From a virus (taxonomy: Duplodnaviria; Heunggongvirae; Uroviricota; Caudoviricetes): a DNA stretch of 7,356 nucleotides. Shown piece by piece: positions 1 to 6,000 of the stretch. Made by a program: the position numbers. Position 1 is the first letter of the stretch. Each line of letters begins with the position of its first letter. Location: the IMG/VR virus record IMGVR_UViG_2778261453_000014; one strand, written 5' to 3'.

Positions 1-3000
1 CAGACATTCTGCCACGTGATCATGTAGCATAAGTGACCTCCGATTATCTACAGACTGCCATCCTGAATTTACCTTCCCTTAATGAAATAACAATAAAAAA
101 CAAACCACGCAAAAACAATAAAATAACACACAAAAAAAACTAAATAATAAACAAAAATAATCACCTTATTTTATTATTTTTTGAGGGGGCAATTACTGAA
201 CAAAAAACGCTGACTATATACTCAAAACCAAACAACTATTCTGCCAATCAGGTATCATGGCAACACACGGAATTACCGTGTTTTTGCCTTCTCTGCCCAT
301 ACAATACGGGCATATACTTCATACTCTATTGTAATATTTCTATCCATGCGCCCCACTCCATTTACCTGTAAATAATATTCAAAATATTTATCACAGAAAT
401 CGTTTTTGGCCATGAACTGAGCACACTATAAAGTCCGGAACTGACTCTTTGTTAAATTACCTTAACGTTACCAGTAACACCTTCATAACAAAACATCACG
501 GTATACACTGGGTACGGATATATTCCTGTGCTCCTTCCAGTTGCTTCTGCATTGCCATCAGCCGTTCTCTGAGGATGAAATAATCCCGTTCAGCGGTGTC
601 TGCCAGTCGGGGGCCGGTTGCATTATCCACGCCGGAGGTGCCGGTGGCTTCACGCACGGTACCGGAGCAGGTGGCGTTGATCCGCAGGCGCTTACGACCA
701 GCGGCAACATCAGCACGCAGAGTTTCATTTTCAGCTCTCGCATCGGCTAATTCCCTCGAGTATCTGGCATCAAGTGCAGCGACATCACGCTGGCGTACCT
801 GCATATCAGTAATTGTCACGTTCGCCAGCTTCAGCTCACTGGCTTTTTTATCGCGTTGCGCTTTGTAGGTAATGGCGTTATCGCGGTAATGATTCAGCCC
901 CAGACTAAGCACACCACAGGCTACCAGCAGGACAATAATCACCACACACAGAACACGGTTCATATCCCCCTCACCCCACCAGCCATGACAAAGTTAAGAC
1001 GCGCCAGGCAGTGGAAAAGCAAATAGCAACCAGCATTAGTGAAAATGAAATGCCGACGATTACACAGAGGATCTTCGCCAGCGTTATGAGCTTGTCTGAC
1101 ATGCTTAATCCTCTTCACGATTTCAACGCAATGACCAGTTTTGCCAGCCCATACAGCATCGGAGACACAGCAATACCGACCGCCACCCACTTAATAGCAA
1201 AAGCCAGCGCTCTGCTGACGTCATCAGTTACAGGCGCTTTCAGTTCAAGGCCGTTTTTCATAGTCAATCTCAACAGAATTCGTTTATACTTTCCCATGTT
1301 CTCCCTTGCCTTACTCAAGGTCAGAAACACAAAACCCCGTTTGCGGCCAACAAACGGGGTTTTACTTTTATTCACTTAGTTTTTGCCAGTTCGCAGGATT
1401 TCGTGTTATCCGCCCGCGTTGGCCAACGTCATTTTTCAGCAAAATATTCTGCTTATCTGTCAATTCCCCAGCACGCCAGTGCACTTTCCTGGTCTCGCCG
1501 GGATACCTGACCGTAGCAATTATTTGAGCGGATACGGCAGTCTCTGCCACCGTCCTTAATCCACCAGCGAATCGCTTCGCAGGCACCTTTTCGATCACCT
1601 GCATTAATCCGTCTGTAAAACGTAGACGGGAAACACTTACCGGGGCCAATGTTATAAGGACAAAATGACGCGATACCCGCCTTCTGGGGTTCGGTCAGCG
1701 GTACTTTAATATTGCGCTCCACCCACTCCAGCGCCTTATCACGTTCAATGGCGTTAACCTGGTCGCACTTTTCCTTCGATAACTTCATACCCGGGACGAC
1801 AGGCTTACCATCCACTCGGGTGGCACCGCGGCATATGGTCCAGATCCCCGCACCATCACGGTATGCCGTGGTGTGGTTACCTTCTTTTTCGTCAAGAAAC
1901 TGGTCGAGGATTTCAGGCGCAGACGTCCCTGCACCAATCAGCGCCAGAACGGCAGCCGACAGGCCGTATCTGATTTTTGCGTTCATGGATATTTATCAGG
2001 ATTTATCGGTTCCGGCCCCCTGGATATGTTAAGTCTTCAGCCCGCCGGTGGTGGGCACTGGCGTAAACCCAACAATGTGAGATGGCTGCCTCGCAAAGAT
2101 AATGAACAGATATGAATGAAGAAAATACAGCGCTTTTTGACAGAATTTTCACTCTTGAGTTACAGGTCGGTTTTCTTCTCCCAAAGATAATCAAAGCCAT
2201 GGATGCACTTGGTAAGAATAACGCTGTGTCAGATTACCTGATCGCCGAAATGGAACATCTCATTAAAGAAATACCAAAGACCGATGCTCGTGATGATAAA
2301 AGATTCCTCAGGGCTGCTGAAAATGCTCTTTCGACCGTGAAGCGCAGCTTAGACGCGCCGCAAGATCAAGAATAGTTTCTTTCATTTCGTCTAATGCAAG
2401 TACCTCATCTTTTGTTGGGGTGCTTTTTTCAATTCAGAGATATAGCACTCCAGTTGTTCAATACGTGATTCAATATCATCTTTTTCTGACCGCAATGCCG
2501 TCGGTGGCGTCTTCAGAGAACCAGTAATTCTTCCCGGTAGCTTTCCTCTGTAGGTTATCAACACGTCCTGCGCCTCTAAAATGATGGGCCGCTTTTCCGG
2601 CAACGGACCATCCCCTTCACATAACCCGGCAGCAACATCCATGAAAAACTGCTTCGCCTGCTTTTCGCCTCAGCTTCGTAAAACTCCAGCGTGGCTCCTT
2701 CAGTACGGTCAAGACTAATCGCCACATCTGGCAACAACAGTGACGGATACCCACCAATTTCCGGTGCCACAGTAACAGTAATCTTATCCGGGTAATTATT
2801 TATCCCTTTAACAACCAGTTCGTATTTTTTCTTCATCGCTTTACTCTCCCCGCGCCGCCTTACGACGGTCCTCTCTGATTTTGAAATACAGGTTAGAAGG
2901 GCCGACCTGTGGCTCTCCTTCAATAGCCACCGCCTGCATCAGTGTGTACGGCGTAATGGCAACCGGTCCGCCGTATGGCTGCCAGCCCTCTTTCAGTTTG

Positions 3001-6000
3001 TGTGTCAGCTTTTCCGCAAGGTCTGACGGCGACGCCGCCCTGACAACATCGTAATGTTTAATCGACATCGAATTTCTCCCGTGTACAGGAACAGAGTTAA
3101 AAAGCCGGAACCGGAATCAAATCACAGGATGACCATCTGCCAGTGGCAGGTCATAAAAAAAAGGCTGCGCAATGCGCAGCCAGAACTCACAAGGAAAATG
3201 ATAAAAGGAATAACACTAGTGATGTACGCATGGCGCCTCCCGCTAAGTTCTGCAATGATCAAACAGAACTCGCTACGTGCCCTTAAAACTCGATCATTTA
3301 GCCCCTCCAAGGAGGATTCACCATGCGGTTGATTTTTTAATAAACAGTAAACAAAAAAGTCAAGAATTATTCATTCTGTTCTTTCATCATCGGCCACAGC
3401 AATACCACAATGCCGCAGACCAGAGCGCCATCAGTCAGTACCAACATTATCCTGCTGGTGAAATCCATCATCACCATCACTAAAAGCAGGATCACAACAG
3501 CAAGCAGACACAGTTTATAAAACAATGTTCAGAAAACGCATTCAGCATGCCTAAGGTTCTATTCCTACGAATAGCCAACTTGCAACTTAAAATATTATTT
3601 ATGCAGCCAATTAAATTCTGGTCCTTACAATATCAACCTGAAGATTCTTATCTTGTGCTGATTGATAAATGACAAACCTTTTACTACCTGCATTGAAAGA
3701 AGTAGACAAAACCAGACAATTATCATAACGAGCAAGAACATAATACCAACCATCATTATAATTAATCATTTCATATTCTTTCTTAAACTGTGGTTTGTAA
3801 TATCCTGTCAGAAATGAAAAAAGCCAGAAATATGCCACAAAAGCAATCATCACAATCTCAAAAAAATGTTTTTTTATAAATGGCTTATCATAGAAGCATG
3901 ATACCGATAAAAATCGCCCATAAGATCTTATCGAAATTGTAACCGCCAGCGCAATCGCTGCTGACAGTAGCAAAAGAGGTACCTGAATCTTCTGTCTCAA
4001 TATAGAAAACTCAATAATTGCCGGCACAAACAATAATTCCACAGCAAAATAAAGGCGAAATACATTTAGCTCTTGCATAGAATGTTTTCTTTTCACTGCG
4101 AAAAAGAATACAACACCAATACCCCAACCGATAAGAAATATAGCAATGACGATAACTGCAAAAAATAAACTTCTGGCAACATCATCAACACCTGCACCTA
4201 CAATCCACCATGGGAAGCCGTAGTAAAAAGAAGTACCCCATCCATAGAAATAAGCACTCCCCCATCCAAGGCATCCCATGTAGGCAATAAAAAGTGAAGA
4301 ACTCCTGAGCAGCGCACCATCCTTCATAACCACCCCAATACAAGATGATAACATTGGCTTACAACTCATAACAAAAGCAATTCAATGCCGTCAAGAGATT
4401 ACAGGCTAAAAAAACTCTATTACATAGCAGCCAGCATGTTTACCGTACAAGTACAACTCAGGGCATAAAAAAAACCCACTCGGCAGCGGGTTTATACATT
4501 TTTTACAACATACCAAATTTGCATGAAGTATATGGCTTTTAATCCAGTTTTGCAATATTTTGCTGTAAAAATGCTGCCTTTTGTTTTGAACGTGTTCTCG
4601 TCACAAGCAATAAAGCATCACTATCAAGCTGTAGAAAAATGTGCTTCATTGCAACCCAGCGTTCAGTAAATGTCTCGGACCAGTTTTTTGTTGTCACTCC
4701 CACCAATGATGCCAGTGTCTGGTATTCATAGGCCTCACGCCCTGCAAGTTCGCTCTTCACATCCTGTGCAGCCAGCCAGATTAACGTCTTCAGGCGATCC
4801 AGTGTCTTACCTGCAATTTTTCTGTTACTTAACAAATCTTTAAACTCGCTCCATGCCCATTGCGTTATGGTGACCTGATGCCCCCATCGAACGCTTTCGC
4901 TGTAACACCAAAGCAACCATGCTTTCTGATGTTCATCGAGAGACAAAACCGCGCGGCGCCATGAAGAGGTTGAGAATTCAACCGGGCTGACCAAAGCAAT
5001 GGATGAACCTTTTGCGTACGACTGCTTACCGGAAGTCGGCGTATTATCCAGCGTAATCATCTTGCCAGTTACCACATCCAGAATGCGCGGCTTCTTTCGT
5101 TTGTATGTACCAGTATCAAATTGTGCATGCTCCTGCCAGGCTTCGAGCTGGCCTTTCGTTGCTCCGTTCAAGTCAGCAGTAGCTGCCATAAGTTGCTCAC
5201 GAACATACTGTAAATATTGGGTATTCATGCAGTAAATCCTTTCTATATTTTGGCATAATTCTTCAACATTCGGTAATCGTTCAAAACCGAATCGGGGAAA
5301 CGACATAAGCACAGGAGCCCCCAGCGACAGCGAAGGAGTTCTGATATATAAGACTCAGACATCATTCATTCCCCGGTTCTCCAAAATCTGTTTCACTCAT
5401 CATCCATAACTACCTGTAATTGCCCCCCCTTTTTTTGTAACAGTTCTTATATTGCTATATAGAATAGCCATTACTAATGCATTTAAATTTAATAAAATAA
5501 AAATTATAAAAACATAAAACACCACGCAAACACACTTAATAAAACACCGTTACATTAAAAGATAATAAAAACCACAATAAAAAACGAATAAATCAATTGT
5601 CTCACACAATTATAAAACATCATATTGATTACGCACCTTGTATTACAAACTCATGTATGTAAAATACGCGCACCATTCAAAAAAAAGGAAGACAATAACA
5701 TATGAAAAAAAGTGTCATCGCTGGCGTCTTTATTGCTCTGTCATTTACCACGTGTTCAGCTATCGCGAACAGCCTTGCATTATCATTAGCAAATGATGAT
5801 GCAGGGAAGTTTCAACCAATACTTAATGATATTTATGGCAATAAACATGAAAACAGAGATGATTACTCACAAGGCTTATTTCTGGGATATAGCCACGATA
5901 TCTCAGACTCGAGCCAATTATCTCTCCATATTGCGCAAGATATTTACTCTCCATCAGGCAGTAATAAAAGACACAACACAGCTGTAACTGGAGACAGAGC

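Follow-up and report, generated by a model that had tools for sequence, protein, structure and literature searches.

A DUF1737–holin-tail reading frame in a lambdoid prophage remnant: a probable scar of deletion in the late operon

The window, that is the whole stretch of 7,356 nucleotides taken from the IMG/VR virus record IMGVR_UViG_2778261453_000014 (Caudoviricetes), contains a late antiterminator gene, a lysis region and, between them, a reading frame of 75 codons that begins with ATG (Table 1). Its start codon is that of a NanS-p-type esterase gene and its stop codon that of a class II holin gene. The preceding Shine-Dalgarno sequence is the ribosome-binding site that belonged to the esterase gene, and phage 434 has it annotated at the same place; the upstream terminator is annotated there too, ahead of the esterase gene. 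A strong terminator immediately upstream agrees with the sequence-only reading of this DNA, which had described the frame as the first gene after an operon terminator. The YdfR/DUF1327 gene is frameshifted by a run of A4 in place of A5 at about 2658-2661. The endolysin, read earlier as SAR-type, combines the two marks of this class, an N-terminal segment and the lysozyme catalytic triad motif: its N-terminus is weakly hydrophobic and rich in Gly and Ala (residues 8-26, GLSAAVLALIGAGTSAPEI), and over residues 11-174 it can be aligned with both the lysozyme of phage 21 (3HDE) and RrrD (4ZPU).

Table 1. Features of the lysis region and its surroundings, in order of position in the window
Feature	Position	Strand	Description
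Rz i-spanin	496..963	minus	155 aa, intact
Rz1 o-spanin	558..743		Embedded in Rz, intact
Endolysin, predicted SAR-type	1453..1986	minus	177 aa, intact; E-X8-D-X5-T at residue 35
YdfR/DUF1327 gene	2391..2836	minus	Directly downstream of the chimeric ORF; split by a -1 frameshift in the window
Chimeric ORF	2841..3068	minus	75 aa; nanS-p 5' fragment joined in frame to a class II holin 3' fragment
Holin-derived part of ORF	2841..2895	minus	Last 17 codons (NLYFKIREDRRKAARGE) and stop; P21-family class II holin
Esterase-derived part of ORF	2896..3068	minus	Codons 1-58; complete DUF1737 and about 7 linker residues
Shine-Dalgarno sequence	3075..3080	minus	GGGAGA, 6 nt before the ORF's ATG
Intrinsic terminator	3163..3181	minus	Upstream of the ORF; 8-bp stem with 7 G-C pairs, then T8; strong
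TciB/DUF3927 gene	3367..3525		Between Q and the ORF
Membrane-protein gene	3611..4354		247 aa; between Q and the ORF
Terminator	4493-4472		After Q
Late-gene antiterminator Q	4539..5228	minus	Q82/434-like

The N-terminal part of the 75-residue product is a complete DUF1737 domain (PF08410, residues 4-49, profile positions 2-52 of 53, E 6.9e-17), whose 61.5 bits lie well above the Pfam cutoff of 24 bits. Residues 1-57/59 are also matched by phrog_2036, phrog_9498 and phrog_143. The remainder gives a local match to PF04971, 'Bacteriophage P21 holin S', that stays below the cutoff of 26 bits (residues 58-71 against profile positions 50-63 of 64, 16.9 bits), and a match to the end of the holin family phrog_9876 (residues 58-75, profile positions 37-54 of 54, E 3.4e-8). 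This short, highly charged tail is identical to the last 17 residues of holin S from BP-4795 and phage 86. The identification of an S21-type pinholin tail in the sequence-only reading was accurate, and so was its placement of the domain boundary at about residue 58. The product has no hydrophobic or transmembrane segment by the Kyte-Doolittle scale with a 19-residue window (maximum mean 0.81, versus 1.83 for the intact holin). It begins with the esterase's MSIKHYDV and not with the holin's MYQMEKI, and the dual-start motif of the holin is absent. Among solved structures, the 75-residue product has no match at E <= 1.

The two parts have separate parentage. Residues 1-58 are 100% identical to residues 1-58 of the 617-residue SASA/NanS-p-type esterase of phage 434, and the esterase of Escherichia coli O145:H28 strain RM12761 is likewise 100% identical over these codons. 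Residues 59-75 correspond to residues 55-71 of the holin. The tail and all of the DNA downstream of it match the 3' end of holin S and YdfR of Stx phages such as BP-4795 at 98% identity; the resemblance to the holin is therefore one of descent and not of chance. Within the 55 bases of the holin part, a single base differs from BP-4795 S. Alignment to holins and to DUF1737 proteins, which had been suggested for locating the breakpoint, places the switch between bases 2896 and 2895, with one ambiguous base (C) and a microhomology of at most 1 nt. To the right of 2896, the DNA is 99.7-99.9% identical to phage 434-type esterase loci, and to the left it is 96-98.5% identical to holin S and YdfR of Stx phages. 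Stx2_95 was set aside as holin donor, as its tail differs at several bases, and BP-4795 was used for the breakpoint instead.

The intact arrangement is found in RM12761, where Q, the membrane protein, TciB, the esterase, the holin, YdfR and the lysozyme follow one another. This prophage shares the context of the window over a stretch that runs from a Ser/Thr phosphatase gene by way of Q as far as PerC and the small terminase subunit. A total of 1,991 bp present there is missing from the window: codons 59-616 of the esterase gene, the DNA between the two genes and codons 1-53 of the holin gene. The left flank of RM12761 is only 96% identical, versus 98% for BP-4795, and RM12761 is not the exact parent of the locus. 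O121 RM8352 was rejected as intact comparator: its esterase gene is interrupted by IS66 and by an internal stop codon, and its lysis cassette is of the RrrD type. Part of the sequence-only proposal, that the 5' end of a holin gene had been replaced by in-frame recombination, therefore stands, since the frame is recombinant and keeps only the holin tail in phase. The N-terminal part, however, is no free-standing DUF1737 gene: it consists of the first 58 codons of the nanS-p-type esterase gene that had stood upstream, joined to the tail by one deletion of 1,991 bp.

The rest of the lysis region offers no substitute for the lost holin. With BP-4795 holin S as tblastn query, only residues 54-71 are matched in the window (17 of 18 identical, E 1.6e-8), all other matches in any frame having E > 1. 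The S21-type holin and lambda S as queries against the six frames likewise recover only this 18-residue tail, in line with the earlier statement that no frame codes for holin transmembrane segments. Small membrane ORFs of the window were scanned as possible replacements. TciB/DUF3927 and the 247-residue membrane protein were ruled out because both accompany a normal pinholin in phage 434, and two small ORFs between R and Rz because they are also present in PhiR12_1, a phage that forms plaques and whose holin S is intact. An intact pinholin elsewhere in the same operon, named beforehand as a finding that would overturn the earlier claim, is absent from the window. In the two carrier genomes examined, the annotation of the remnant prophage lists no holin. 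By these comparisons, the late operon of the window has no holin left.

The junction is rare. Of 5,426 complete E. coli genomes, 8 contain it, with identities of 99.5-100%. No case came from 50,697 phage records searched at the protein level or from species-representative genomes scanned for the exact junction, and the corresponding scan of IMG/VR found one contig with the same remnant. Among 5.8 billion proteins, the tail is covered by one cluster of six members and by one variant with the same junction. The exact 75-residue protein is present on 41 contigs, and the three named members of its cluster account for 73. Neither these proteins nor the 5,426 genomes contain diverged relatives of the DUF1737-tail combination, and all occurrences seem to derive from the same single event. 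The carriers fall into two subgroups about 1% apart over the window. As both have the junction, the allele must have persisted for some time. In one subgroup, the conserved LYFK motif of the tail is altered by F62C.

In both carrier genomes examined, the surrounding prophage lacks genes for head, tail, replication and repressor, carries other pseudogenes and has the reading frame labelled as an incomplete pseudogene by NCBI's PGAP. Independent stubs or chimeras of DUF1737 exist elsewhere (P0103, joined to the C-terminal half of an endolysin; P0044; P0023), and in a further locus, L001, a 56-residue stub is accompanied by an intact holin. These other stubs run into arbitrary and unrelated downstream sequence. 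With such scars commonplace in cryptic prophages, the description of both proposed origins as unusual was overstated. The second of these origins, a natural regulator that contains a holin tail, is not supported, given the single junction in so few genomes, the single protein cluster without diverged relatives and the pseudogene label.

The ORF is very probably a scar of pseudogene type, produced when a single illegitimate deletion took about 2 kb out of the late operon of a lambdoid prophage; the prophage has since decayed to a remnant. This reading draws on direct observations: both parentages, the position of the breakpoint, the intact locus used for comparison, how rarely the junction occurs, and the decayed state of the prophage around it. 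The ancestral order would have been Q, membrane protein, TciB, terminator, nanS-p-type esterase, class II pinholin S, YdfR, SAR endolysin R and Rz/Rz1, with an esterase of DUF1737-SASA-C-terminal domain architecture. The deletion would have extended from just after esterase codon 58, in the linker past DUF1737, to holin codon 54, and the reading frame would have been kept by luck, at a one-in-three chance. With the frame preserved, the esterase's start codon and ribosome-binding site would now drive synthesis of a 75-residue product made of DUF1737 and the 17-residue charged tail, and an in-frame fusion behind a good ribosome-binding site may yield a stable protein. Having lost both pinholin transmembrane helices, this product cannot form pinholes, and the cassette is left without holin. 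If the late operon were transcribed, for example with Q provided in trans, a soluble protein without function in lysis would be made, and the SAR endolysin would depend on slow spontaneous release alone. The earlier suggestion of a lysis-defective prophage is moot, since in both carrier genomes examined the element is a remnant whose head, tail, replication and repressor genes are missing.

An origin by illegitimate recombination between two co-resident prophages, one contributing a 434-like late regulatory region and the other a Stx-phage-like lysis cassette, is conceivable because of the unequal left-flank identities of RM12761 and BP-4795. The flanks also have their best phage matches in different types, 434 and 2B8 on the right (98-99.7%) and BP-4795 and Stx1a phages on the left (98-98.5%). 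However, RM12761 has the same modules contiguous in a single prophage, between the same neighbouring genes, lambdoid mosaicism accounts for the differences in identity, and a single deletion is more parsimonious. We consider such an exchange unlikely, and its product would still be a non-functional scar. The proposal that the chimera was created by sequencing or assembly could appeal to the A-run in the adjacent YdfR, where a single-base difference may be a homopolymer error, but it is refuted by independent assemblies: the junction is identical in eight genomes finished independently by different laboratories in different countries, the exact protein recurs on many contigs, and the IMG/VR contig has the junction too. 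This leaves an artefact with next to no probability.

A functional role is also very hard to credit. The chimera could be a modulator acting in trans, produced with Q from a lambdoid or Stx prophage resident in the same cell; it might disturb pinholin timing through the common cytoplasmic tail, in a dominant-negative or antiholin-like manner, or compete with full-length NanS-p for capsid hexon sites through DUF1737. The frame with its start codon and ribosome-binding site is intact, as are the Q, endolysin and spanin genes; the carriers have several further loci for holin and nanS-p, at 7-10 places per record, and the allele is common to both subgroups. In addition, according to a preprint, phi24B gp84 binds the capsid through DUF1737, and this domain is cleaved off after about residue 54-57, which is close to the end of the esterase part here. 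Against this, there is one junction and no diverged family, the tail is changed by F62C in one subgroup, other DUF1737 stubs are joined to whatever sequence lies downstream, and the remnant is without its own early promoter region. Moreover, in a systematic truncation of S2168, the C-terminus past K56 proved largely dispensable for pore assembly; the tail is thus not a known interaction surface. That the chimera serves as an inter-prophage interference factor against the phage that trans-activates it, at capsid hexon sites or in pinholin triggering, accordingly has only a very slight chance of being correct. The chimera is a case of ordinary prophage decay and not a new lysis regulator.

Among known systems, the frame is closest on one side to the prophage sialate O-acetylesterases of the NanS-p type (SASA/YjhS; phage 434 gp71, 933W NanS-p, phi24B gp84). 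It shares with the 434-type gene the start codon, ribosome-binding site, upstream terminator, first 58 residues and position downstream of Q, TciB and terminator, but the SASA catalytic and C-terminal domains (codons 59-616) are deleted, which makes esterase activity impossible. On the other side, it has the last 17 residues and stop codon of the P21 holin S family (S21, S of 933W, H-19B and BP-4795, EssD/EssQ), followed by YdfR and the SAR endolysin as in Stx phages. Members of this family have two transmembrane helices, a SAR-like TMD1 and a pore-lining TMD2. In contrast, the frame lacks residues 1-53 with the dual-start N-terminus, TMD1, loop and TMD2, scores below the Pfam threshold and encodes no membrane protein. 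Like the other DUF1737 stubs of E. coli and Shigella prophages (PGAP 'DUF1737 domain-containing protein, partial'), it is a nanS-p 5' leftover of a deletion or rearrangement, but its downstream partner is a holin tail in frame. SAR endolysins can be released spontaneously without holin, and lysis then comes later and with less sharp timing (PMC9239132). The locus resembles such holin-less lysis in keeping SAR endolysin and spanins; unlike the Mu gp25 releasin system, however, it shows no sign of a releasin or other replacement, and the absence of a holin is due to decay and not to design.

The case has little importance beyond annotation. In a prophage that is decaying, as it exemplifies, a deletion can produce a tidy-looking chimeric ORF that mimics a domain fusion, and the PGAP label 'DUF1737 domain-containing protein, incomplete' conceals that the same deletion removed the pinholin. 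The product would be of wider interest only if it acted in trans on co-resident Stx phages; interference of this kind, if true, would turn a cryptic-prophage scar into a factor of competition between prophages. In the carrier strains, the remnant keeps a Q-dependent SAR endolysin and spanins with no holin of its own. These strains were isolated from humans and cattle, and some have nleH and cif in the remnant.

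Similarity searches with positions 2380-3620 of the window, followed by base-by-base comparison, showed that the scar ORF (MSIKHYDVVRAASPSDLAEKLTHKLKEGWQPYGGPVAITPYTLMQAVAIEGEPQVGPSNLYFKIREDRRKAARGE) joins the start of a nanS-p esterase gene to the tail of a pinholin gene. From 2896 rightwards, the window shares 99.7-99.9% identity with phage 434 and similar loci, in which this DNA comprises TciB, a terminator and the 5' part of the gene for a 617-aa 'SASA family carbohydrate esterase' of NanS-p/YjhS type. From 2895 leftwards, it shares 96-98.5% identity with Stx phages, whose counterpart consists of the 3' end of holin S and a subsequent YdfR/DUF1327 gene. 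Read along the coding strand, the match to the 434 esterase gene extends to base 2896 and that to S of the Stx phage BP-4795 starts at 2895/2896; this is the breakpoint that the sequence-only reading had proposed to locate by alignment. The two parents have a single base (C) in common at the junction, and this microhomology of ≤1 nt indicates an illegitimate, near-blunt join. Residues 1-58 correspond to esterase residues 1-58 (MSIKHY...GEPQVGPS/SEPDWYY) and residues 59-75 to holin residues 55-71 (...LTYLT/NLYFKIREDRRKAARGE), the preserved reading frame being a one-in-three outcome.

Domain assignments follow the same boundary. DUF1737 occupies residues 4-49 (Pfam; 61.5 bits versus a cutoff of 24; profile positions 2-52 of 53), in agreement with the definition of this domain, and residues 1-57 match several PHROGs families, one of them a 634-position profile of esterase length. 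Residues 58-75 match the final 18 positions of a PHROGs holin family (E 3.4e-8), and residues 58-71 give a sub-threshold local match to the end of PF04971, 'Bacteriophage P21 holin S' (Pfam; positions 50-63 of 64). Both the boundary at ~58 residues and the pinholin tail had been recognized accurately from the sequence alone. Of the features that define the P21 holin S family, the ORF lacks the two TMDs and the dual start and falls short of the gathering score; of those that define NanS-p esterases, it lacks the SASA and C-terminal domains. It contains no hydrophobic stretch, the maximal Kyte-Doolittle mean over 19 residues being 0.81, compared with 1.83 in a class II holin that is intact. A nanS-p'::'S fusion pseudogene is the most apt description of the ORF. 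Its pseudogene status is already flagged in RefSeq, where PGAP annotates the first 52 codons in the carriers CFSAN004176 and 2014C-3011 as 'DUF1737 domain-containing protein; incomplete; missing C-terminus'.

Features of the window around the esterase-holin junction
Feature	Position	Strand	Remarks
Small ORF	971..1102	-	43 aa, two hydrophobic segments
Small ORF	1115..1297	-	60 aa as annotated
Rz, Rz1			intact
Endolysin			177 aa, intact
87-aa ORF	2112..2375	+	phrog_18136; WP_001001501.1 in carriers
YdfR/DUF1327 gene	2391..2836	-	-1 frameshift at ~2658-2661, two ORFs
Scar ORF	2841..3068	-	75 aa, ATG start
Phe62 codon (F62C)	2883..2885		one carrier subgroup
Esterase RBS			GGGAGA, intact
Strong terminator	3181-3163		ahead of scar ORF; also annotated in phage 434
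Q			intact
Terminator after Q	4493-4472		
LpxR-family gene	5702..6661	+	lipid A deacylase
Ser/Thr phosphatase gene	6873..7316	-	truncated
IS2/IS3-family end	7280..7356		last 77 bases

Among related prophages, whose comparison the sequence-only reading had recommended, the intact order is found in E. coli O145:H28 RM12761. Within the same surroundings as in the window (Ser/Thr phosphatase, LpxR, YlcG, Q, membrane protein, DUF3927/TciB), this locus continues with the SASA esterase (616 aa), class II holin (71 aa), YdfR (114 aa), lysozyme, Rz, PerC and the small terminase subunit. Compared with this locus, 1,991 bp (L008 6288..8278) are missing from the window: codons 59-616 of the esterase gene, the 152 bp between the esterase and holin genes, and codons 1-53 of the holin gene. 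A single deletion of this interval in one prophage would have left the in-frame scar ORF. Because the left flank of the window is 96% identical to RM12761 versus 98% to BP-4795, RM12761 is not the literal parent, and an exchange between two co-resident prophages is a possible alternative. Such an exchange is less parsimonious than a simple deletion, which is preferred. The earlier proposal of an in-frame recombinant that lost its holin proves right in outline.

That proposal and its alternative, a natural holin-tail regulator, had both been called unusual, an overstatement in view of the independent DUF1737 stubs that exist. DUF1737 residues 1-44 are joined to the C-terminal half of the endolysin in protein P0103, and similar stubs to a PF12421 domain (P0044) or to an inverted copy of their own coding DNA (P0023); strain 2022H047 (L001 4101..4265) has a 56-aa stub resulting from a ~1.5-kb internal esterase deletion, next to an intact holin. 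Breakpoints cluster near the domain end (residues ~44-58). With such varied partners, nanS-p 5' stubs that run into any downstream sequence are decay products that keep arising and do not represent a designed architecture.

The scar itself is a rare, single-origin, ordinary deletion remnant in a decayed prophage. The 200-bp junction occurs in 8 of 5,426 complete E. coli genomes (99.5-100% identity); at other loci, the left half is annotated as class II holin and YdfR. Phage records contain no such junction, by DNA or by protein, and species-representative genomes no exact one; the one IMG/VR match represents this remnant again, with 99.7% identity to the window across 7.3 kb. When 5.8 billion proteins were searched, the full ORF length was covered only by the six-member cluster of the exact protein (all 75 aa, all E. 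coli); a 105-aa variant (P0007) has the identical junction, and nearly all remaining matches end near residue 52-59. A Phe-to-Cys change (F62C) in LYFK, a conserved motif of the holin-derived tail, marks the second carrier subgroup (P0002), whose window-wide identity is 98.9%; the junction is thus common to both subgroups despite ~1% divergence.

Six-frame tblastn of the window with an S21-type holin and lambda S retrieved only holin residues 54-71 (E 1.6e-8), all remaining matches having E > 1, which bears out the earlier statement that no holin TM coding appears in any frame. No credible replacement exists among the other candidates. TciB/DUF3927 and the 247-aa membrane protein co-occur with a normal pinholin in phage 434, and the two small membrane ORFs between endolysin and Rz are conserved among phages of the Stx type; one of these, the plaque-forming PhiR12_1, has both together with an intact holin S. 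The endolysin appears to be SAR-type, as had been proposed, judging from its Gly/Ala-rich N-terminal segment, E-X8-D-X5-T at residue 35 and alignment from residue 11 with phage 21 lysozyme (3HDE) and RrrD (4ZPU). Without holin, SAR endolysins are released spontaneously at a low rate, and lysis is later and less sharply timed (PMC9239132). If the cassette is ever transcribed, this would be its sole remaining lysis route.

In YdfR, the window has A4 where all seven comparator loci with the site (L003-L006, L008, carriers L004, L009) have A5, reflecting either further pseudogenization or a homopolymer sequencing error. The 87-aa ORF between YdfR and the endolysin, on the opposite strand, is a conserved antisense insert of this type of lysis cassette; the PhiR12_1 gene in the corresponding place is called 'DUF1823 containing protein'.

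According to a 2026 preprint, DUF1737 of gp84, a NanS-p-family esterase of phi24B, decorates the capsid as hexamers on central hexons and is removed by cleavage after ~residue 54-57. The breakpoint therefore lies in a natural interdomain linker, and the stub comprises the whole domain. When S2168 was truncated systematically, the C-terminus past K56, an electrostatic anchor at the membrane interface, proved largely dispensable for pore assembly. Thus, the retained tail is not known as an interface for assembly, and this speaks against a dominant-negative effect through the tail. Action of the product in trans on co-resident Stx phages, by capsid-site competition or altered timing, is very improbable.

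In CFSAN004176 and 2014C-3011, the remnant prophage adjoins mdtA, and L011 3742..9001 (2014C-3011) plus L004 44..925 place it between mdtA and the ibs/yegL region. It retains integrase, excisionase, fragments of DUF550, Ser/Thr phosphatase and lambda-type Q genes, LpxR, YlcG, Q, membrane protein, TciB, the scar ORF, a partial YdfR gene, lysozyme, the two small ORFs, Rz/Rz1, PerC, the small terminase subunit and tail-fibre fragments. Head, tail, replication and repressor genes are absent from the remnant in both carriers, so that no particles can be formed; the holin is indeed lost, but the suggested lysis defect is moot. Both carriers contain the T3SS effector gene nleH, and 2014C-3011 additionally cif and a frameshifted espJ pseudogene; the remnant is in effect a T3SS effector island on a decayed lambdoid prophage. 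The LpxR gene, which lies between a lambda-Q N-terminal fragment and YlcG/Q82-like Q and has exactly this place in the annotation of phage 434, is probably a moron and may be one reason for the remnant's retention. The final bases of the window match IS element ends (L011 9001-9077, 9289-9365), so that the IS abuts the truncated Ser/Thr phosphatase gene; CFSAN004176 differs in sequence at the corresponding point.
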